A DNA stretch of 64,000 bases from an uncultured Bacteroidota bacterium. GTDB taxonomy: Bacteria; Bacteroidota; Ignavibacteria; UBA10030; UBA6906. How positions within the stretch are numbered: position 1 is the first letter of the stretch; every line of letters begins with the position of its first letter. Position numbers and translations under genes: made by a program. The stretch spans positions 672,001 through 736,000 of the forward strand of contig CAVOYH010000003.1 of the NCBI GenBank assembly GCA_963700635.1, given 5' to 3'. Positions 2,608-46,062 of the stretch are shown here, one piece after another. Under the pieces are notes generated by a model. It ran no database searches. It had not been told where the DNA came from and was given only the letters and a program-made list of their open reading frames with translations.

Positions 2608-4550
2608 GCAGACCTATGTCCCCTGCCCGATGGGTGATGGTCCTGGTCTTCTTTCGGGTGTTCCTGTCTGCACCGGTGCAGGCACAGGAAGCGACCGGGG
2701 AAGCCGAGCTGGTGCCATCCCCCGTTGATTCGCTCACCCGGGTCAACTCGGCAAGCGTTGTGTTTGACAAGAATCTGAACACGTTTAACTGGATCGGCCG
2801 GCTTGTGATGGATACCGTTGTTGCCAGCACACGGATCGGACTCGCCGCCAATTATCTTTCCAATATTATTCAGATCGACGGTGCGCCAGGGGGCGCTCCT
2901 CGATCATCCGAGAGTACCCAGCAGACGTTTCGACTCTCCCTTGCCCACCCAATCGATGCTCCCATCGGGCTCCGTACACAATGGTCTTCTCTGGTTTACT
3001 CTGACAACCGGGGGATTGGCCTGAACAATGCCTCCAACCATACGATCCTCGCCGGGATTGACTACACCCCCTGGACTTCGCTCAGCCTTACACCCCTTGC
3101 GGGGTTCCGGTGGGACAGACAGGGATCTATTCACGACCGGGGACTTGTCCTCGACGTCGGGGCTTCACTTCATGACATTGATGTTGATGGGTATCGAATC
3201 CTTGGTGATGGACGGTTCCGTCAGGACCGCCTTGATCCGCGTTTTCTCGAGAATCATTCCGCACATACCAGCATCGAAAAATCCTTCGGACCCCAGTCCA
3301 GTGATAGTCTGTCTTTCGGTTTCTACCGATCGCGCCGTGAATTCTACCTTAACGGAGATAGTGTCATCGAAAGCCGGACGGACCAGGTGTTTACCTTCGC
3401 CAATCTGCTGTCATACGACATCACCCCTTCCCTCGGTGCAAACGTCTTCGTCGGGATTCAGAACCGCGGATTGGACAAAGACGAGCGGCGCATCATTGTC
3501 TTCCCGGTATCTTCCACCTCCTTTGATACACGTGTTGAAGAATTCCGCCTCGATGCATATATGCAGGCATGGTACCGTTCACCTGACGCATCCACATCCG
3601 CTCATCTCCGTTTCGCATACAGTGAGCGGAGTGAAACCCACCGGGCCAAGTCGCCCGACGTGATCACGCCAACGCTCGCTGTGTTGTTTGCCGAACGTAA
3701 CCGGCGCGAACAGTCGAAAGACAATATTGCCCGAAGGGTGTCTCTTGCAGGGGGTATTTCTCTTCCGGTCTCCTCCTCGGACCGTATCCATTTTTCAGGT
3801 TCGGCGACTGTTCTGCGATACGATACCCCGAGCGAGCTGAATCTGGAAGACAGGGACGAGCTGCTGATCGCACTCACAGCGGGCACCCTTCACCGGGTTA
3901 CAAGGCACTTTCACGTCGGCATTACCTTTGATGCGACCATAAGCCATCTTGTGTACCTGCTGGGGGAACGCAGCGCCAACAACAACATCAACCGTGTGAT
4001 CCGGTTGACACCCCGGACAGTCTATTCTCCGGTTCCATGGTTTTACACTCAGAATGCGTTTGAGGTGCTCGCCAATTACACCGTGTATGACTACGAAAAA
4101 CAGGTGGCCCTCGCCAGAAGTTTCTCGTACCGGCAGTTCTCCTGGATGGATTCCACGCGCATTGAGCTGGGGCAGAGGATAGGACTTGACTTTTTCGCCT
4201 ATTTAAAGTTGTATGAACGTGGAATGTTGAAGTGGGACGAGTTTCTCGAACGGACGGAGAATTCAACAACCGACCGCACAATGGCGTTTCAGGTTCGGTT
4301 CTCCCCCAGCAGAACAACGATTTTTGCGCTGGGAATCAGATATTTTAGCCAGTCGCGCTATCTGTTTGAGGATTCCGTCAGGAAGCTGGATACGTTTTTC
4401 AGCAGTGTCGGACCGACCTGTCTTCTTCAATGGGAGGTTGGACCGCACAGTTTTCTCTCGTTTCGAGGATGGTATGAGCGGCGCAAACATTCGGACGGCA
4501 CTTCCCGGTCAACAGCCAGCATGACGGCAAATGTCTATCTCCATTTCTGA
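2604..4550 (+). CDS. Hypothetical outer-membrane beta-barrel protein
   Basis: Signal peptide ending AQA, alternating beta-strand pattern rich in Y/F/R/S, C-terminal VYLHF beta-signal; start may be ATG 2616. Confidence 0.6.
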   Translation: MSRPMSPARWVMVLVFFRVFLSAPVQAQEATGEAELVPSPVDSLTRVNSASVVFDKNLNTFNWIGRLVMDTVVASTRIGLAANYLSNIIQIDGAPGGAPRSSESTQQTFRLSLAHPIDAPIGLRTQWSSLVYSDNRGIGLNNASNHTILAGIDYTPWTSLSLTPLAGFRWDRQGSIHDRGLVLDVGASLHDIDVDGYRILGDGRFRQDRLDPRFLENHSAHTSIEKSFGPQSSDSLSFGFYRSRREFYLNGDSVIESRTDQVFTFANLLSYDITPSLGANVFVGIQNRGLDKDERRIIVFPVSSTSFDTRVEEFRLDAYMQAWYRSPDASTSAHLRFAYSERSETHRAKSPDVITPTLAVLFAERNRREQSKDNIARRVSLAGGISLPVSSSDRIHFSGSATVLRYDTPSELNLEDRDELLIALTAGTLHRVTRHFHVGITFDATISHLVYLLGERSANNNINRVIRLTPRTVYSPVPWFYTQNAFEVLANYTVYDYEKQVALARSFSYRQFSWMDSTRIELGQRIGLDFFAYLKLYERGMLKWDEFLERTENSTTDRTMAFQVRFSPSRTTIFALGIRYFSQSRYLFEDSVRKLDTFFSSVGPTCLLQWEVGPHSFLSFRGWYERRKHSDGTSRSTASMTANVYLHF

Positions 4551-33855: not shown

Positions 33856-34998
33856 TCAGGCCCTTCTCAAAATCACCATGGCACTCAACACCATGAGAGC
33901 TGCGACAACGAAAAGAGCCGCGTGGAATGTCCCGGTGGAGTCATAGACAAGTCCGGCAAGGATCGGCGCCGGCGCCGCAAGGATGTTGGCGGAAAAAAGG
34001 AGTCCGTACACTTGTCCGACCCGGGCCGTACCCCATACACGCGCGACAGCCGATGCGTACAGGACGAGTACTCCTCCGTAGTTAAAACCTGCCACCATCG
34101 CAAAGACAACAAGTCCGGCACCGGTGCCACAGGAAAATACAATCACCGAACACGCCTGGAAGATGAGATTTGCACTGATGACTGTGCGCAGTTCCGTCCG
34201 GTCGAACAGATATCCCCACGTTAACCGTCCAAGAGCATTCGCAACCGCAAAAAGCGACACTGCCGCGACTCCTGTTGTTAACGCCCCGGCTGTTGACAAT
34301 TCTTTCAGGTTGGCATTAATCATAAAACCCGCAGCAAGTCCCGTGACCATCGCCAGATAGAGCAGCCGGAATGTGGGGTGAGATACTATTGCTGTTGTGG
34401 AGAGAAGGGGCGGCTCAGATGTAGTTGTTCCGCTGGGAAACCGTAATGTGCGGGAGGCCAGAGACGTCACACCGCAGAAGAGTATTCCCAGAACCAGAAA
34501 TACGTAAAATGGTGATGTGCTTCCTGCGATCAACCACAAACCTGAGACCTGACTGATCAAAGCCGCCCCTCCGCCAAACCCCGCAACGGCAACTCCTGTC
34601 ACTAGCCCTCTACGTTCGGGAAACCACCGCACCAGGACTGCAATGGGCACGACATACGCACACCCGACGCCGATCCCTGCAAGAAGTCCGATTCCCAGCA
34701 CGGTGAACACAAAATGGTAAGAACCCAGCGAAGCAAGAATCCAGCCGGAGCCAAAAAGAATTCCCCCCACCAGCGCACAACGTTGCGGACCCAAGCGGTT
34801 CAGGATCGTTCCGGCAAAGAGCATCGTAGCCGGAAATGCGAAATAGAAGACTGTGAAGGGAAGCTGTACCGTAGCCTGTGAGAGTCCCGTGGTCTCACGG
34901 AGAGGCAGCACAAAGACAGACCATGCATACGTCGCCCCCAGACACATCTGGAGGCCGAGGGATGCAACAATGATCAGGGAACGACGGGGCGTGTTCAT
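33856..34998 (-). CDS. MFS transporter, oxalate:formate antiporter (OFA)-like
   Basis: LGATYAWSVF, WFPERRGLVTG, GFGGGA, NALGRL, about 12 TM helices. Confidence 0.88.
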   Translation of the reverse strand: MNTPRRSLIIVASLGLQMCLGATYAWSVFVLPLRETTGLSQATVQLPFTVFYFAFPATMLFAGTILNRLGPQRCALVGGILFGSGWILASLGSYHFVFTVLGIGLLAGIGVGCAYVVPIAVLVRWFPERRGLVTGVAVAGFGGGAALISQVSGLWLIAGSTSPFYVFLVLGILFCGVTSLASRTLRFPSGTTTSEPPLLSTTAIVSHPTFRLLYLAMVTGLAAGFMINANLKELSTAGALTTGVAAVSLFAVANALGRLTWGYLFDRTELRTVISANLIFQACSVIVFSCGTGAGLVVFAMVAGFNYGGVLVLYASAVARVWGTARVGQVYGLLFSANILAAPAPILAGLVYDSTGTFHAALFVVAALMVLSAMVILRRA

Positions 34999-35006
34999 AC
35001 GTGGCG

Positions 35007-37322
35007 TTACAACGGATCCCGCTCAACGCCAAGTTCCCAGCGCCGGCTTTGCCGCATCAGCGAATCAAAATAGTGACTGTTGGGATTCGTCTGCAATCTC
35101 CCATTCGCCTTCAGCAAATCCACCATTAAGTCGTAGCTATCCCCCGTTGACGTGTACAGGAATCGCATGTGCCTGTCAAATGTGTAGTTGAGGATTGGCT
35201 CCGAGGGCCATCCCGGCGGGATATCGGGGCCTAATCCGTCACTGATGCACGCCGTGATTCGTCCGAGCCGCTCATCAACCTTTGTAAACAGAGCTGAATT
35301 TCCCTTGCTTGAGCCACGGAAGGCATCTCCCACGGCCGTGCGCGGAATCAGGATATAGTATTTCTCCCTGGCTGCAACGGGGGCATCACAGCGGTACTCT
35401 CCTTGTGTCGGAGAACAGCCATCCATCTGTCCGACTTCCAGAACTGCAACAAAGGCACGCCGGTATGCATTGTTGACGCCACAGGCAACAATCTCTTTCA
35501 CCCCATCCTGATCCACATCTCCGACTTCGATATCTGCCACATGTCCGACATGGACGTATTGTTCCCGTATTGTACCGTCGCGCCCATTCAGGCGCACGAC
35601 AAAACCTGGAAATGATGGTGTGTGCGACCCCGAAACAAACACATCCGGAGCGCCCTCCACACCGGTATCCATGACCACGATGTCTGAGTTACAGTAGGTT
35701 CCTCCGAGGGTTTCCTGCTTTTCTGGAAAAAGCGCCCTGGGAATGATCGTCGTTCGCCAGAGAAAAGTTTCTTTTTGAATGGACCATGCGCACACCTCAT
35801 CGTGTACCACCAGACGATCCGAACTGGTCCGGACAAATACGATATCGGGAACATGATCTCCATCAAAATCGCCGAAACCGTGCCCCTTCTGTGCCACCAT
35901 AGTGCTGACAAGACGTGTCCCCTTCTCAACAGTGGCCCTTCCTACGGTGATGTCCCCTATCATCTTTCCGTACCGGTTCTGCACCGTAAGTCTGTCGCCT
36001 GCATATTCCACCGATACAGGAATCTTATCCCATGATCCCGACAGGTGCCAGAGTGTCAACAGAACGAGCCCCGAGGATGCGACAAGTGCCACACTGCGGG
36101 TCTTTTTCTGCCATATCCTTCGGGCGGTATGAGCGACCAGACCCGACCGGGTATGCCGTGTCACCCGCCGGTCATAAAACACTTCCCGCACATGCCGCAC
36201 CCCGATCACATCCAGCACGCGGTGTGGATGATCCTTTGAGAGTGCCGCAATCAGACTTTCGGCAACGGTCAGGTGGTTCCTGGGGACGACCACGGCCGAG
36301 AGAGGGGAATAGAATACTGCTTCGAGTTTCTGTGGAAGCGTGCCCTCGTCAACGGGCATGACCGATCCGTCGGGATCCACATCTCCGGTGATTGCCACTG
36401 ATGAAAGGACGTCGTATTGTTCGCGTTGTCCGGCAGCGCGTGTTACGCCGGCGATGAGGAGGACCGCCAGGGCGAGGTTTGCCGACCCGCCTTCGTGCAG
36501 GGTCTGTTTGCCGCGGAACGTCGCATGGCCGCGCACATAGTTCCGGGCTATACGTGGCTGCATTTGTTCCAGTACGCTCCGCGCCGCTCTTGCCGAAGTG
36601 TCCCACACCGCTGCATGAACATCCTTCACTCCAAAGACGGCCACATCGGAATGCAGCTCATCTTTTTCGCCTCCTGCCGCACCGGTGATCTGAAGTTCCA
36701 GCATCTGCATTCCTCCCCACGATGCCGGCGCCGCACCCTCTGTCAGGCCATGTTCGACGACAGGAACAAAACAGGAGTTGGAGGATCGTTGAAGGGCAGA
36801 TTCCCAGTGTGCCTGGATTATGCGCAAGGAGGTGGAAACCGGGTGACCCGACGCTTCAACTTCGGCTGTCCACCGGCGTACCCGTTCAAACAAAGGCTCG
36901 CGACCCTCCTCTGGTACCGGCACGGTTGATCCCGGATCGCCACCAGCATCAAGAACCTGCCATGCCCTGTCCCGATCACCCGCGTACAGATACAACTCCG
37001 CCAGCCGTAATCGGATTTCATGTTCAATTTCTGCAAACATCGGTTCTAGGGCAAACCCTGAAACATCGTCCGCCAGAACTGCCAGCGTACGATGGAGTGA
37101 AGCAAGTGGCTGGGGGGAGAGTCCGAATGTCGGCAATTCCTGGATCGTCCCCTTCAGCCTTGGAAGGCAATCACGGATATACGATTCGTATACACCTGCC
37201 TCTTGGCCAAGAAAGGAGAGAAAATGGTCGAGTGCAACGATATCCTGAAGGGAAGAGTGGGGATAAGCGAGTGTGACAAGAAGGGTCTGGTAGTGCTGCT
37301 CGACCGTGAGAGGATTGTGCAT
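35007..37322 (-). CDS. Single-pass membrane protein: helical N-domain + AAA-less Lon (S16) protease domain + TM + FG-GAP repeat ectodomain
   Basis: HEGGSANLA (Ser280), VAITGDVDPDGSVMPV, PQKLEA (Lys332), VVVP.N, DVIGVRHVREV parallel the Lon protease domain; TM about aa 410-427; GDFDGDHVPDIV and GDVDQDGVKEIV repeats. Confidence 0.8.
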   Translation of the reverse strand: MHNPLTVEQHYQTLLVTLAYPHSSLQDIVALDHFLSFLGQEAGVYESYIRDCLPRLKGTIQELPTFGLSPQPLASLHRTLAVLADDVSGFALEPMFAEIEHEIRLRLAELYLYAGDRDRAWQVLDAGGDPGSTVPVPEEGREPLFERVRRWTAEVEASGHPVSTSLRIIQAHWESALQRSSNSCFVPVVEHGLTEGAAPASWGGMQMLELQITGAAGGEKDELHSDVAVFGVKDVHAAVWDTSARAARSVLEQMQPRIARNYVRGHATFRGKQTLHEGGSANLALAVLLIAGVTRAAGQREQYDVLSSVAITGDVDPDGSVMPVDEGTLPQKLEAVFYSPLSAVVVPRNHLTVAESLIAALSKDHPHRVLDVIGVRHVREVFYDRRVTRHTRSGLVAHTARRIWQKKTRSVALVASSGLVLLTLWHLSGSWDKIPVSVEYAGDRLTVQNRYGKMIGDITVGRATVEKGTRLVSTMVAQKGHGFGDFDGDHVPDIVFVRTSSDRLVVHDEVCAWSIQKETFLWRTTIIPRALFPEKQETLGGTYCNSDIVVMDTGVEGAPDVFVSGSHTPSFPGFVVRLNGRDGTIREQYVHVGHVADIEVGDVDQDGVKEIVACGVNNAYRRAFVAVLEVGQMDGCSPTQGEYRCDAPVAAREKYYILIPRTAVGDAFRGSSKGNSALFTKVDERLGRITACISDGLGPDIPPGWPSEPILNYTFDRHMRFLYTSTGDSYDLMVDLLKANGRLQTNPNSHYFDSLMRQSRRWELGVERDPL

Positions 37323-37419
37323 AGGAGCTCATGAGACTGCACATCGTACAAAGGGCTCAGGACGCGAGTGGCGGCCAACGGAAAATTCGGCGTGACACGG
37401 ACCGGTGAAGTTACCGGCT

Positions 37420-38265
37420 TTATCCGTACAGTCGCAACACGAAATCCCCCTCCCCTGCGGGGAATTCTCCTGCTCCATGGATCAGAATGCTCAACACGGC
37501 GTCAGACGGAGTCTTCACCAGTGCCACTGCTGGCAGGGCGGGATTTCCCTCGTCATACACACGGACACGGATGAGATCTCCGTTGTTCGTCACCTCGATT
37601 GTACAATGGTGGTCGTTCTCACCCTTCGTGTAGGCGATGGATTTCTCCAGGGGCAGGTCATTTCGGCCGAACGTAACTGTCGCCACCGGTATGCGAAGGA
37701 GTCCTTCGATCTGGGACCAATCACGCGGTTCCATTGCCGGCTGTAACTCAAAACCAACCTGCCCCCGGTCGTCCGTCACAAACTCGCCTATATCCGGAAG
37801 GGAGATCAGCACAACTTCTCGTTTATGCGGATCTTCCGTATGGACGTACAGGCGGTATGCATGCGCATCACCCTCACGCCGTATTCGTACAAGGGTGTTT
37901 TCGGGTTCAGATGCCAGTGTTGCGACCGTTTCGTCAAATCCACGGGCCAACGTCCGGGGTGTCATCGCCGCGAGCACCGTCGTATATCTGCCGTGCAGCG
38001 TGTGCATGTCAGGCCGGGGTCTGAAAGGGATAAGCCGGATGGTCGTTGCTGATGGGATAATCTTCTTCATAACTTCTGCGAGAAGATCTTTCTCCAGAGC
38101 CCCGGCGGTTACCATCGTCGCATAAAACTCCCGCTGCGCTTCCTCCACGGCCCTGCACCCCGGGCACCGGGCCAGATGTTCCCGTATTTCTACGAGTGTG
38201 GCAGCATGCAGTCGCTCAGGGGCGACAATACTGAGTTCGATTGTATGTTCGTCAATATGGTTCAT
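37420..38265 (-). CDS. Soluble zinc-binding anti-sigma factor-like protein (zf-HC2/ZAS)
   Basis: H3...H30-LAR-C34-PG-C37 (HxxxCxxC) at N-terminus; no TM helix; beta-rich C-terminal part. Confidence 0.75.
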   Translation of the reverse strand: MNHIDEHTIELSIVAPERLHAATLVEIREHLARCPGCRAVEEAQREFYATMVTAGALEKDLLAEVMKKIIPSATTIRLIPFRPRPDMHTLHGRYTTVLAAMTPRTLARGFDETVATLASEPENTLVRIRREGDAHAYRLYVHTEDPHKREVVLISLPDIGEFVTDDRGQVGFELQPAMEPRDWSQIEGLLRIPVATVTFGRNDLPLEKSIAYTKGENDHHCTIEVTNNGDLIRVRVYDEGNPALPAVALVKTPSDAVLSILIHGAGEFPAGEGDFVLRLYG

Positions 38266-38342
38266 TGTTACTATTGGTTATGCGCAAATCTCTCCTCCCA
38301 CAGAAATCCGCCGTTCTCTCTCCACCGGTTGGGGAGAGCCAA

Positions 38343-39374
38343 TCACGGAACTTTTCCGATCCCCAATTCCCGTCTGATTTGTCGTACAAACGCCGCCCTT
38401 GCGAGTTTTACCAGGTATTCAAATCGACACCGGTGCTCCTGATGATATTGTTCCAATGTCAGCAAGGGTATTCCCGCGGCGAGATGGTCATGGTACGAGG
38501 TGGCGTGTCCGTCGTTTAAAATGAACTCAGCCCGGAGAATCGCCTGAACAGCTTCCCTGTAGGCGCTGAATGTTGTTTCAGCCACCGTTCCTTTCTCTAC
38601 ATAGAGCCTGTGCTTTTTGTCAAATACAGCAGTCACCGTTCCGGTGATTGCCGCTTCAAGTTCTTCCGGACGGATCGCCGATGAAGTGTCCGTCTCTTCC
38701 GGGGTTGTTGCAACACCGATGCGCAAAAAGGCCGTGCGGATCAGCAGGCCAAGCAGCGTTAACGGATAACTCCTCCGGTAGATATTCTGTTGATCCAAAA
38801 TACATGCAACACGATCCATCACTTCAGGCATGACGCTCTTTCCCGAGAGGTCCACAACAAGGAGGCCCTCAAGATATTCCCAGGGGATCTCCGGCAGCTG
38901 CCGGATGTGCTCGGTCTCTGTCGTTACCTGCACCCACAACTCGCCGTTGCGGCGATCTTCAGTCAACCGGGAATTCTTCCGGATGGCATTGCGGATATTG
39001 CGAAGTATCTTTTCCAGAGAGGGATCGGACTCTTTATAGAGCCGTGACAGTTGCTGATGGACTTTACTGTAGACGAGGCGGCGGGTGAAGGAAAGAAGCT
39101 CCTCTTCGGAGAGCGAGTCCCATCCAAGGGGCGTATAGTATGCGTGCAGTTGAACGAATCGTCCGCTTCCATCCCGTTCATAGAGGGGCCCGATACAGTC
39201 GACAGCGAGATCATGAACAGAAAGACCAAAAAAATCGGGATGGATGGTACGTGCGTGGATTCTCTTATGAAGATAGACCGTGGCAATCCGAATCGTCAGG
39301 GCAACATACGGCTGCATATCCGTCGTTGTCGGGTGCGGCGCGAGAATGCGTCGGAGGGCTTCGCTGAGATGCAT
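38343..39374 (-). CDS. Divergent ECF-like sigma factor (putative)
   Basis: Region-2-like HDLAVDCIGPLY...FTRRLVYSKVHQQLSRLYK; C-terminal region-4-like FEYLVKLARAAFVRQIRREL; directly upstream of a ZAS gene; ATG 39374 with AGGGG SD. Confidence 0.55.
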   Translation of the reverse strand: MHLSEALRRILAPHPTTTDMQPYVALTIRIATVYLHKRIHARTIHPDFFGLSVHDLAVDCIGPLYERDGSGRFVQLHAYYTPLGWDSLSEEELLSFTRRLVYSKVHQQLSRLYKESDPSLEKILRNIRNAIRKNSRLTEDRRNGELWVQVTTETEHIRQLPEIPWEYLEGLLVVDLSGKSVMPEVMDRVACILDQQNIYRRSYPLTLLGLLIRTAFLRIGVATTPEETDTSSAIRPEELEAAITGTVTAVFDKKHRLYVEKGTVAETTFSAYREAVQAILRAEFILNDGHATSYHDHLAAGIPLLTLEQYHQEHRCRFEYLVKLARAAFVRQIRRELGIGKVP

Positions 39375-39424
39375 TGTTCCCCTGAATGTCAGCAGCAGCA
39401 ATGCCCCGTGGGGGCACTGCCGTA

Positions 39425-40024
39425 TTAGTCGCGAATCTCCAATCTCCGGATCTCATCCCGCAGGCCCGCGGCCTTCTCGTAATCCTCTTTTTCGATCGCC
39501 TGCTTCAGCTGTTGATGGAGCTGTTCGAGACGGGTAAGCTTGTTGGGTGGCTGATCTTTTGGTGCTGCAGCGGCTTTGGGTGGTTTTGCGCCTCCCCCCT
39601 CTTTCTGTTGTGCTTCCTCTTCTTCTTCCTCCGGCACAAATGACGCTTCGTCCATAACGCCACCCGCCACAAAAATCTGCGCGCCATACCGGACGGCGAG
39701 GGCGATCGCATCACTCGGACGGGAATCAATGAGCTGGTTGTCAATATTCAGCTTTGCGTAAAATGTCCCGTCGCGCAGGTCGTCAATCGTAACATCCATC
39801 AGTTCGGAACCAAACGATGTGATGATGTTTTTCATCAGATCGTGCGTCAGCGGTCGTGGCGGCTTGATCCCCTCCATTTCCAGGGCGATTGACTGCGCCT
39901 CGGCCTGCCCGATAATAATCGGCAGGCGGCGGGTCCCTTCGACTTCCCGGAGAATCAACGCATACGCTCCGCCACTGGCGGGATTTGTTGAGAGTCCTAG
40001 TATATCAACCAGCACGCGTTCCAC
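39425..40024 (-). CDS. Bifunctional nuclease family protein (DUF151) with C-terminal UvrB/UvrC motif
   Basis: LPIIIG, PPRPLTHDL, DSRPSDAIALA, AIEKEDYEKAAGLRDEI. Confidence 0.93.
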   Translation of the reverse strand: MERVLVDILGLSTNPASGGAYALILREVEGTRRLPIIIGQAEAQSIALEMEGIKPPRPLTHDLMKNIITSFGSELMDVTIDDLRDGTFYAKLNIDNQLIDSRPSDAIALAVRYGAQIFVAGGVMDEASFVPEEEEEEAQQKEGGGAKPPKAAAAPKDQPPNKLTRLEQLHQQLKQAIEKEDYEKAAGLRDEIRRLEIRD

Positions 40025-44386: not shown

Positions 44387-44899
44387 TCACCAGCCAGATA
44401 CTGTTTCAAGCAAGACATCTTCACTGATTTTCCGGATCGCTTCTTGCATTCCCGCCTTCCGTTGTGACACGCCACCTCCGGAGTCGTAGTCCCCCCAGTT
44501 GGAAAAATTCTTTTCCCAGACCTTGCGGCGTAGTTTCATGTCCTGAAATGTGAACTTGACCGACATGGTGATGCGGCGTTTGCTCACCTGCTCACCCTGC
44601 TCGACAACGGAGGGTGCATCGGTCACGGTAACGATGGACCCGACCAGCAGCGCATCTGCGGTACTCCGATCGGCAACCTGCAGACTGTTGTCGTTGATAA
44701 AGAGATCCGTCACGGACCGTGTCACTTCCTCCCGCAATCCAGGTTCACCGAATCCCGACTGATCGTCGATCAGTGGAACGGCGATGGTTTTCAGATGTGA
44801 CGGGACAGAAGCCCCGGTAAAGGAATAGACGCATCCGGTAACAAGGAACGCAACCGTGCAGGCAAAGATGTGTACGGGGCCGGTGTTCCGTCTTTTCAT
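44387..44899 (-). CDS. lptE: LptE-family lipoprotein
   Basis: Lipobox VTGC, YSFTGAS, ending SGW; context downstream of sigma54-type regulator as in Bacteroidota. Confidence 0.7.
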
Positions 44900-46062
44900 C
44901 CGTGCTCCCTCGCATCCAGCCCGTATTCCTTGATTTTTCTGTACAACGTGCGCTCGCTGATGTGAAGGGCCCGTGCGGCAACGCGGCGGTTGCCTTTGTA
45001 CCGCTCGAGGGCTTCGCTAATCATGCGCCGCTCCATTGTCTCCAGCGAGAGGTTCGCGGGCTCCACAGCCTCCCGGGACTCGTCCGGATCCGCGTTTCCC
45101 GACCGGTACATGTCCTGCGTTTGCAGATGGTCGAGAAGTTCATTTTTGAGGTCCAGAATACTTCCCTTGATGTCAAGCAATGCACGGAGGATCAATTCTC
45201 GTTCCGCCTGTTCAACGCTCCTGCCGACGGGAACCGGGAGATTTCTTTCTTCCGTAACACCCCGGAACTCTTTTAAGTATTTCTGCACATCCTGCGGTTC
45301 AAGATGGCGGCCGTTTTCCAGGATCAGCATGCTCTCCACCACATTGCGCAATTCCCGGACGTTTCCGGGCCAGTGATAGGATTGGAGGAGCGCCAGCGCC
45401 GAAGGGCTGATGCCGGCAAACGGCACGTTGTTCCTGCGGGAGATTTCAGCTGCAAAATGCCGAAAGAGCACGGGAATATCTTCCACGCGCTTCCGGAGCG
45501 GGGGGATGCTGATATTCACCGACCGGAGGCGGTAAAACAGATCTGCGCGGAACCGCTGCGCCTGGACTTCCACCTCGAGGTTTTTATTTGTTGCGGCGAT
45601 CACGCGCACATTCACTGTCCGCGATACCGATGAACCCACACGGAGAAATTCGCCATTCTCAAGTATCCGCAGAAATTTTACCTGCGCCGAGAGGGGTAAT
45701 TCACCCACCTCGTCGAGAAAGATACTCCCCCCGTCAGCCAGCTCGAAGTACCCCTTTCGCTGTTCCGATGCGCCGGTAAAGGACCCGCGCTCATGCCCGA
45801 ACAACTCACTCTCGATGATACCTTCGGGGATGGCGCCACAGTTCACGGTAATCAGGGGCTTTTTGCTGCGCGGGCTGGCTTCATGGATCGCTTTGGCGAT
45901 CACCTCTTTCCCGACGCCACTTTCCCCCGTCACGAGCACGGTGATATCTGTCGGTGCGACCTGTTCAATCACGTCAACGATTTTCCGTATTTCCATGGAT
46001 TCGCCGACGATACCATGCTCTTCCTGGAAACGGTCTGACTGTATGCGTACCGCTGCGTCCAT
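44896..46062 (-). CDS. Sigma54-interaction (bEBP-like) AAA+ regulator with Fis HTH, no input domain
   Basis: [52 protein letters not shown]. Confidence 0.93.

Follow-up and report, generated by a model that had tools for sequence, protein, structure and literature searches.

A conserved gene triad in Bacteroidota: a sigma-like protein, a putative soluble anti-sigma and a membrane receptor with an AAA-less Lon protease domain

A three-gene locus

The window analysed here is a stretch of 64,000 nucleotides from the genome of an uncultured bacterium of the class Ignavibacteria (Bacteroidota; contig CAVOYH010000003.1, positions 672,001 to 736,000). It holds three adjacent genes from three protein families whose sole name in the sources, where they have any, is 'hypothetical protein'. 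Their products are a sigma-like protein, a soluble protein of anti-sigma type and a single-pass membrane protein that joins an outside domain to a Lon protease domain. Comparative evidence and one complex model suggest that they may form a transmembrane signalling module, in which a receptor-protease would act on a docked anti-sigma to release the sigma-like protein. In the numbering of the window, the genes are:

38343-39374, minus strand: gene 1, sigma-like protein of 343 amino acids (open reading frame, family search, AlphaFold2 model and structure comparison with VIA)
37420-38265, minus strand: gene 2, putative soluble anti-sigma protein of 281 amino acids (N-terminal zinc anti-sigma (ZAS) domain, linker, VLAA motif, C-terminal region)
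35007-37322, minus strand: gene 3, putative receptor-protease of 771 amino acids

These open reading frames (ORFs) are co-oriented and stand head to tail, with intergenic gaps of 77 and 97 bases. The ATG at 39374 is taken as the start of gene 1 because it aligns with the first methionine of relatives; a TTG further upstream, at 39401, would give a protein of 352 amino acids.

Conservation of the triad

Near-full-length relatives of gene 3 occur in nine of 41 related genomes, the genome of the window included, and relatives of genes 1 and 2 lie directly upstream of the gene 3 relative in each of the eight loci fetched. There, tblastn found the sigma-like and Lon genes in all eight cases and the ZAS gene in seven, the eighth ZAS ORF being found by its motif. 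The triad is flanked by housekeeping genes, encoding a bifunctional nuclease with a UVR motif and the alpha and beta subunits of electron transfer flavoprotein on one side, and a major facilitator superfamily transporter and PdxJ on the other. A reading of the window made from its letters alone (the sequence-only reading) had described three co-oriented genes in such a setting, with the right coordinates and lengths. These neighbours are kept in three genomes of the same genus; in more distant genomes the neighbours differ and the triad stays.

A wider view comes from 301 genomes sampled evenly across the phylum. Gene 1 relatives are present in 34 of them, with up to three full-length copies per genome; 22 genomes have a match to the cytoplasmic part of gene 3. 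Of the 27 Lon-domain matches outside the genome of the window, 22 have a gene 1 match no more than 3.5 kb away on the same contig and strand, and a 23rd is on a 2.6-kb contig that breaks off inside a gene 2 relative. In class-level relatives (L077, L078 and L080) the order is gene 3, gene 1, gene 2, with adjacency kept. Chance adjacency of the triad is ruled out by these counts, because the arrangement recurs both in the eight fetched loci and in the phylum sample. The sequence-only reading had named a lack of co-occurrence in other genomes as a ground for its own rejection; co-occurrence is found, and it supports the view that the three genes are a conserved module.

The putative membrane receptor-protease

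The product of gene 3 is laid out as follows:

36783-37322, minus strand: helical domain at the N-terminus, residues 1-180, where gene 2 is predicted to dock (complex model)
36123-36782, minus strand: AAA-less Lon (S16) protease domain, residues 181-400 (PDB alignment, family profile)
36483-36485 and 36327-36329, minus strand: catalytic Ser280 and Lys332, respectively
36030-36098, minus strand: single transmembrane (TM) helix, residues 409-431, preceded by positively charged residues (hydrophobicity)
35010-36020, minus strand: putative extracytoplasmic FG-GAP-like sensor domain, residues 435-771, common to membrane anti-sigma paralogues

As a single sequence searched against PDB, gene 3 aligns over residues 265-382 to the protease domain of Archaeoglobus fulgidus LonB (E=2.8e-4), with GGSA over GDSA and QKLEA over QKIEA at the catalytic sites. 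A profile of 13 relatives reaches the same domain (1z0e) at E=2.7e-11, with many Lon proteases next. Five residues, G278, S280, T312, G313 and K332, show no variation among the 13 aligned relatives, so that the Lon domain is very probably an active protease. At E<=1, Pfam returns only FG-GAP_3 and a faint Lon_C, and NCBIfam only the Lon part of TIGR00764. Neither detects an AAA+ module in gene 3, which is therefore an AAA-less Lon, as is CalpL of the CalpL-CalpT-CalpS system; the Lon Ser-Lys protease domain noticed in the sequence-only reading has thus held. CalpL itself is reached by the family profile only at E=0.35, and sequence kinship with it is not detectable beyond the Lon core. The closest solved relative of the protease domain remains that of archaeal LonB. 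Archaeal LonB is also membrane-anchored. It carries an AAA+ module and acts as a general protease, whereas gene 3 has no AAA+ and comes with a specific set of partners.

The most hydrophobic stretch of gene 3, residues 409-431 (RSVALVASSGLVLLTLWHLSGSW), is preceded by RRIWQKKTR. Relatives exceed the TM threshold at the equivalent place, the threshold being a best 19-residue Kyte-Doolittle window of at least 1.7. By the positive-inside rule, the first 400 residues would be cytoplasmic and residues 435-771 outside, that is, a topology of N-in/C-out. The outside part has weak similarities to FG-GAP repeats, rhamnogalacturonan lyase 11 (PL11) and lectin propellers, and is probably a beta-propeller. 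The likeness to PL11 and lectin propellers, weak as it is, hints at glycans or Ca2+ as what this domain may bind. One TM helix and FG-GAP repeats had been read in this protein before; both are confirmed, the repeats just under the Pfam cut-off (FG-GAP_3, E=1.6e-5, 25.9 bits against 26.9).

The putative soluble anti-sigma protein

Two features stand out in gene 2:

38071-38265, minus strand: ZAS anti-sigma domain, residues 1-65, with H3, H30, C34 and C37 (profile, alignment)
37966-37977, minus strand: VLAA, residues 97-100, possible site of cleavage by Lon and possible degron (alignment)

The zinc ligand pattern is H3...H30xxxC34xxC37, with the local sequence HLARCPGC. Its conservation was followed in 31 aligned N-termini, those of the window protein and of 30 relatives chosen only for HxxxCxxC and an adjoining gene 1 relative. 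All four residues are invariant in 31 of 31; the last three are the selection criterion itself, and H3 lies outside it. Since H3 is invariant too, the ligand set H3, H30, C34 and C37 is complete and fits the ZAS pattern H/C-x(23-27)-H-x3-C-x2-C. A profile of the N-terminus has as its two best PDB matches RsiW (5wuq_C, E=3.2e-4) and 3hug_B (E=5.4e-3), the latter from the SigL-RslA complex. In Pfam, zf-HC2 scores 16.3 bits against a cut-off of 22.2 for the window protein and is matched by eight of 29 family members at E<=0.05. The remainder of the window protein and of 29 relatives matches no Pfam family, MazF and DUF2080 included. The ESM Atlas places gene 2, like gene 1, nearest to unnamed clusters.

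With its best 19-residue hydrophobicity window at 1.54, gene 2 has no TM helix by the threshold given above. This bears out the description of a soluble protein with an N-terminal H...HxxxCxxC motif given in the sequence-only reading, as well as the contrast drawn there with membrane anti-sigmas of the RseA type. Collectively, the ligand set, the RsiW match and the missing helix support the assignment of gene 2 as a soluble ZAS-type anti-sigma.

Two architectures of the partner of gene 1

Additional evidence comes from 40 loci chosen by a gene 1 match alone, which hold 41 gene 1 relatives. In 15 of these, the gene 1 relative is followed by a soluble protein of 190-285 amino acids and then by a Lon receptor. 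In another 22, it is followed directly by one membrane protein, of about 440-515 amino acids (about 800 in two cases). The remaining four have neither type of partner; a gene for a putative cognate anti-sigma, soluble or membrane-bound, thus follows 37 of 41. Of the 22 membrane-type partners, 19 share the N-terminal MxHxDEHTLELxxL...HLxxCxxC domain, with HxxxCxxC within the first 80 residues. The type also has a TM helix near residue 105-140 and the same outside domain as gene 3. By its sequence layout, this partner is the classic one-protein anti-sigma of the textbook form, ZAS domain, TM helix and sensor in a row.

In the paralogues, the ZAS and outside domains belong to one polypeptide; in the window they are found on separate proteins, with Lon attached to the outside domain. 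This correspondence, which goes beyond the sequence-only reading, independently supports three assignments: gene 2 would inhibit gene 1 as its cognate partner, the sensor would be the outside domain, and the Lon domain would take over the coupling between the two.

The type of partner follows the phylogeny of gene 1. On a quick maximum-likelihood tree of 49 gene 1 relatives, five changes of type are needed against a mean of 19.3 after shuffling, and none of 200 shuffles gave a count as low. At least two groups of the Lon-linked type appear on this tree, whose backbone is too weak for origins to be counted. Both architectures occur within one genome in G003 and in G178.

A docking model and a conserved [LM]AA motif

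Modelling of the protease with the anti-sigma had been proposed in the sequence-only reading as a check. In the complex model of gene 3 (residues 1-400) and gene 2, the anti-sigma is placed on the N-terminal domain of the Lon protein. Three runs gave interface scores (ipSAE) of 0.66, 0.64 and 0.68, against 0.00 for the best of three controls. The ipSAE mark, which this model passes, was reached by 58 of 80 solved complexes against two of 110 mismatched pairs, counts that are only rough because own alignments were used. At least 68% of contacts recur between runs, and the predicted local distance difference test (pLDDT) of the partner is at least 74. The predicted interface is made of residues 1-20 and 44-54 of gene 3 and residues 81-90, 112-144 and 167-169 of gene 2. 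It includes P4 and E8 of gene 3, both invariant, and R127 of gene 2, conserved at 90% or more. The model supports, and does not show, binding of gene 2 to the N-terminal domain of gene 3.

Between two predicted interface segments of gene 2, a loop carries VLAA (residues 97-100). In 29 aligned soluble partners, the only strongly conserved residues beyond the first methionine are A99, A100 and R127. [LM]AA, a motif unremarked in the sequence-only reading, occupies the aligned position in 28 of 29. The exception, in L051, has no Lon gene in its fetched locus. Among the membrane-type partners, any [LVIM]AA in the 130 residues after CxxC is found in only six of 19. VLAA is a candidate for both the cleavage site of Lon and a degron.

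The sigma-like protein

For gene 1, one domain is recognizable:

39027-39374, minus strand: sigma-2-like N-terminal domain, residues 1-116 (AlphaFold2 model and VIA)

Gene 1 belongs to a large family. Clustered at 50% identity, it numbers 912 representatives at E<=1e-3, of which 225 also pass E<=1e-30; among the 150 listed, most are 288-388 amino acids long. The AlphaFold2 model, built with 120 sequences, is multi-domain and has a pLDDT of 92.6 and a predicted template modelling score (pTM) of 0.63. Beyond the first domain, residues 117-231 form a helix/beta-hairpin domain and residues 232-343 a four-helix domain (helices long, medium, short and long). Folded alone, residues 117-343 reach a pLDDT of 92.2.

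In the comparison with VIA, sigma-factor entries make up 15 of the 18 listed rows that cover residues 1-117, the matched chain being identified as sigma from entry titles for several rows. The best row for this domain is ShbA (9m84_F; Z 8.3, root-mean-square deviation 2.8, 91 residues aligned). Further rows are pro-sigma-K (8vjl_B, 7.5), BldN (6dxo_A, 7.4) and SigW (5wuq_A, 7.3), with AlgU, sigma-E region 2, CnrH, sigma-32, SigB, SigK, Rhodobacter sphaeroides SigE and sigma-S among the others. The domain is called sigma-2-like because the list is uniformly of sigma factors, although each Z is middling. The protein is named 'sigma-like' since one defining domain is present and a second was not found. 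The sigma label is half supported.

Other searches with gene 1 brought little. Foldseek gave no match at E<=1e-3 for either of its two models, phmmer and the family profile found nothing relevant among PDB sequences, and the single sequence as query found no relative in the related-locus search. In the ESM Atlas the nearest neighbours are unnamed clusters, with sigma70 r2 or r4 clusters appearing only at 0.84 and 0.83; these are leads only. A VIA-wide comparison of residues 117-343 lists assorted helical proteins, with 8j2y_B best (Z 7.8). Lambda Q (Z 6.4) and TFIIB (Z 5.4) are among the rows and do not stand out.

A proposed mechanism and its alternatives

A three-protein transmembrane module is proposed, consisting of a receptor-protease, a docked soluble anti-sigma and a sigma-like output; the balance of the evidence tips slightly towards it. 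At rest, the N-terminal anti-sigma domain of gene 2 would hold gene 1, while its middle domain (residues about 80-170) would be docked, as in the complex model, on the cytoplasmic N-terminal helical domain of gene 3. A signal outside the cell would be sensed by the FG-GAP-like domain of gene 3 and would switch on the AAA-less Lon domain, probably through a changed oligomeric state of the receptor. Lon would then cut gene 2 in the VLAA loop, at or next to LAA. The leftover anti-sigma fragment would end in -LAA and might be removed by proteases of the ClpXP type. Freed in this way, gene 1 would bind RNA polymerase and redirect transcription. The interpretation given in the sequence-only reading is largely borne out by the comparative evidence and the one complex model, with the sigma identity of gene 1 and the proteolytic step still at the stage of proposals.

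A number of observations weigh against this mechanism. Four Lon-domain matches of the phylum sample have no gene 1 relative nearby (G146:C14, two in G272:C54, and G210:C38). The genes downstream of the Lon gene vary by locus (S8 and M6 peptidases, CBM/BNR proteins, proteins with a type IX secretion system (T9SS) tail, DUF362, YkuD), so that no regulon is readable from context. In gene 2, the zinc ligands are replaced in one large clade that keeps the Lon receptor (L055, L057-L063, L068 and L069). Zinc is therefore dispensable for the module, and the label ZAS is not valid for the whole gene 2 family. In the complex model, the VLAA residues and Ser280 lie outside the confident contacts. Most of the difficulties concern gene 1. 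Its sigma-2 likeness does not exceed Z 8.3, a range that VIA calls common for helical domains. Neither VIA-wide nor Foldseek lists a sigma-4 or sigma-3 fold for residues 117-343. The window protein has no sigma match in Pfam or NCBIfam, and no sigma family is among the listed matches of 120 members (25 of 41 Pfam and 25 of 26 NCBIfam families). By hhalign, the family fits eight extracytoplasmic function (ECF) sigmas of the same genome with a probability of 1%. Upstream of 49 gene 1 relatives there is no shared promoter motif, paired k-mers reaching a maximum count of 6 against 4-6 in shuffles. Gene 1 may thus be something other than an initiation factor. The sigma label attached to it in the sequence-only reading stands for the fold of residues 1-116 and falls short for a sigma-4 or sigma-3 fold and for any match to sigma models or profiles. 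The Pfam families expected there fared in the same uneven way: Lon_C appears faintly, zf-HC2 weakly and below its cut-off, and sigma70 r2 and r4 do not match.

The docking geometry also suits a different role for the receptor. The Lon protein could be a membrane tether or co-anti-sigma, from which a signal frees the complex by conformational change or partner switching, Lon serving for quality control, self-processing or other turnover. The model indeed puts the anti-sigma on the N-domain, away from the active site. The mechanisms listed for soluble anti-sigmas in the available text of a review are conformational change, partner switch and a mechanosensing complex (PMC8999054). A tether would leave unexplained a catalytic dyad that is invariant in all 13 relatives and an [LM]AA that is specific to Lon-linked partners. 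Moreover, the substrate of CalpL likewise docks on the N-domain and is cut in trans, according to the accessible part of the source (10.1101/2024.05.08.593097). A tether is accordingly judged rather unlikely.

It is also conceivable that the proteolytic switch stands and that its output is not promoter recognition, gene 1 being another regulator or effector that reuses a sigma-2-like domain as a handle for the inhibitor. The lack of a detected sigma-4 and of any sequence signal for the sigma-70 family fits this view, as do C-terminal two thirds with no clear PDB relative (best 8j2y_B, Z 7.8). The sigma entries that fill 15 of 18 listed N-terminal VIA rows speak for a sigma factor. So do the best PDB matches of the partner ZAS domain, which sit in sigma/anti-sigma complexes, and a gene order and membrane-paralogue layout like those of ECF pairs. 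An output other than initiation is considered unlikely.

Gene 2 might instead be mainly a thiol-based or redox sensor in the cytoplasm, like RsrA and ChrR, that releases its partner upon oxidation. Its H-H-C-C ligand set is complete, and oxidative stress is given as the usual input of soluble ZAS proteins in the review (PMC8999054). The Lon receptor would then be a co-regulated accessory, for example one that clears oxidised anti-sigma or resets the system. Against this, an entire clade with other residues in place of the zinc ligands still has the Lon receptor. In addition, the membrane paralogues unite this N-terminal domain and an outside sensor in one protein, which points to an extracytoplasmic input. 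Redox sensing as the main role of gene 2 appears quite unlikely.

An anti-phage defence system of the CalpL kind, suggested by a tripartite logic like that of CalpL-CalpT-CalpS, is very improbable: no triad protein matches PADLOC, no cas genes were detected among the ORFs of the window that were scanned and no closely spaced direct repeats in it, Pfam finds no SAVED or CARF domain, the sensor would be outside the membrane, the same housekeeping neighbours persist within the genus, and up to three full-length gene 1 copies per genome are what ECF-type systems have.

The proposed proteolytic module can be set in a wider frame, which is tentative and judged somewhat short of probable. There would be widespread sigma-like initiation factors, invisible to annotation, that combine a sigma-2 domain with a new C-terminal promoter-binding domain. 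One branch of them would have come under the control of a new class of single-pass receptor proteases by the splitting of a classic membrane anti-sigma. In these receptors a beta-propeller would sense a ligand and Lon would cut the docked soluble anti-sigma at LAA to expose an ssrA-like degron, with no intramembrane proteolysis.

Relation to known systems

The nearest functional counterpart is CalpL-CalpT-CalpS. In the part of the source available, CalpT docks on the N-domain of CalpL; the cut falls in a LAAA stretch and is made in trans, by a neighbouring subunit (10.1101/2024.05.08.593097). The LAA end of cut CalpT is described there as a degron, as is VAA of RseA for ClpXP (10.1101/2024.05.08.593097). 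Mention is also made of ssrA-like degrons in mycobacterial anti-sigmas, in what is accessible of another preprint (10.1101/491043). The triad shares with this system an AAA-less Lon with a docking domain at its N-terminus and a sensor domain, a soluble anti-sigma and a sigma-like output. The LAAA cut and LAA degron of CalpT, as given in the accessible text, have a parallel in the near-invariant [LM]AA of the soluble partners, and docking on the N-domain is predicted here by model. The differences are as clear. A TM helix and an outside FG-GAP-like sensor take the place of a cytoplasmic SAVED domain that binds cyclic tetra-adenylate (cA4). The anti-sigma is of ZAS type, whereas CalpT combines a MazF-like part with DUF2080. 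There is neither a SAVED nor a PADLOC match, and no CRISPR context. By its sequences, the module would work like CalpL-CalpT-CalpS, yet is not a member of that system.

Membrane anti-sigmas are classically controlled by regulated intramembrane proteolysis, with site-1 and site-2 proteases, as in RseA/DegS/RseP/ClpXP and RsiW/PrsW/RasP. Such systems share with the triad the route from an outside signal to anti-sigma proteolysis (proposed here), an RsiW-like ZAS domain and, at paralogous loci, the classic layout itself; the Ala-Ala logic of the degron is probably common to both. The triad departs from them in three respects: its anti-sigma lacks a TM helix, sensor and protease form one protein, and Lon would do the cutting on the cytoplasmic side in place of site-1 and site-2 proteases.

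RsrA and ChrR resemble gene 2 in being soluble, in the zinc motif H/C-x(n)-H-x3-C-x2-C and in the position of their gene directly after the sigma gene. In the available text of the review, they act by conformational change upon cytoplasmic redox or singlet-oxygen stress (PMC8999054). In the present family, one clade does without the zinc ligands, and the linkage to a membrane protease is a further difference. Craspase (Csx29 TPR-CHAT, Csx30 and CASP-sigma) has a similar logic, as far as the sources available describe it, in that a protease cuts a sigma-bound inhibitor and frees a transcriptional response. Its protease is a caspase-like CHAT enzyme activated by RNA-bound Cas7-11, without a membrane sensor or a Lon domain.

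Three mechanisms for soluble anti-sigmas are given in a 2022 review of non-canonical ECF control, in whose accessible text the word Lon is absent (PMC8999054). No description of an arrangement like that of the triad was found in the full-text literature, subscription journals and supplements such as ECF-group tables being outside the search. The module is thus probably a hitherto undescribed route by which an external signal reaches gene expression.

Should the mechanism hold, it would be a fourth way of controlling soluble anti-sigmas, beyond the conformational change, partner switch and mechanosensing named in the parts of the review available (PMC8999054). It would also be the first transmembrane counterpart, outside CRISPR, of the CalpL logic, and a direct route from receptor to protease to transcription without intramembrane proteolysis. 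Three families of 'hypothetical proteins' would gain a function, one of them the family with 912 cluster representatives. A receptor that turns an outside ligand into one specific cytoplasmic cut would be a compact part for synthetic biology. Finally, both architectures exist side by side, sometimes in one genome, which makes them a natural experiment on the rewiring of a pathway by domain splitting.

Variant loci and genomic context

Variants of the receptor occur at several loci. Tandem pairs of Lon-receptor genes stand behind one sigma-like/anti-sigma pair at L016:6591-11401, L045:828-5386 and L063:700-5083, which suggests two sensors feeding one output. The two membrane-type partners of about 800 amino acids carry the outside sensor domain twice (L041:1624-4065 and L047:3473-5884, both minus strand). 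The Lon-receptor genes of genome G210 are fragmented, Lon and sensor lying in separate ORFs (L078:5863-7596, plus strand; L079:2861-4966, minus strand); these could be pseudogenes or assembly errors.

Partners and neighbours vary as well. The soluble partner at L051:5235-6059 (minus strand) has no zinc ligands and reads QIQA instead of LAA. No Lon receptor was found in that locus, and this form may be a third way of controlling the sigma-like family. At L070:1805-2233 (plus strand), an ORF of 142 amino acids lies between a gene 1 relative (496-1506) and its membrane partner (2884-4545). By eye it is presumably a transposase of the IS200/IS605 type, and would then be an insertion that splits the pair. 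Large secreted proteins are encoded just after the module in four loci: an S8 subtilase (L014:1206-4463), an M6 peptidase (L015:8662-12012), a CBM4_9/BNR protein (L019:8121-12326) and a protein with a T9SS tail (L018:7922-8503). They are possible targets, with no conservation across loci.

In the window itself, a scan of 34700-39700 for promoters and terminators gave chance-level results only. An inverted repeat rich in G+C lies in the spacer between the nuclease/UVR gene and gene 1 (39375-39424); it is not followed by a T run, and AGGGGA stands between it and the ATG. A promoter-like site was not detected in this spacer, and gene 1 may therefore be read through from upstream. In line with the sequence-only reading, neither cas genes nor a repeat array were found: PADLOC detected no cas genes among the triad and 44 of the 53 other greedy ORFs of at least 100 amino acids in the window, and closely spaced direct repeats there amount to zero families. 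One further protein, of 388 amino acids (44896-46062, minus strand), matches the PADLOC model RtcR_PspF2 at 1e-109 over its AAA+ part, and is most likely an ordinary sigma-54-dependent activator rather than a defence gene.

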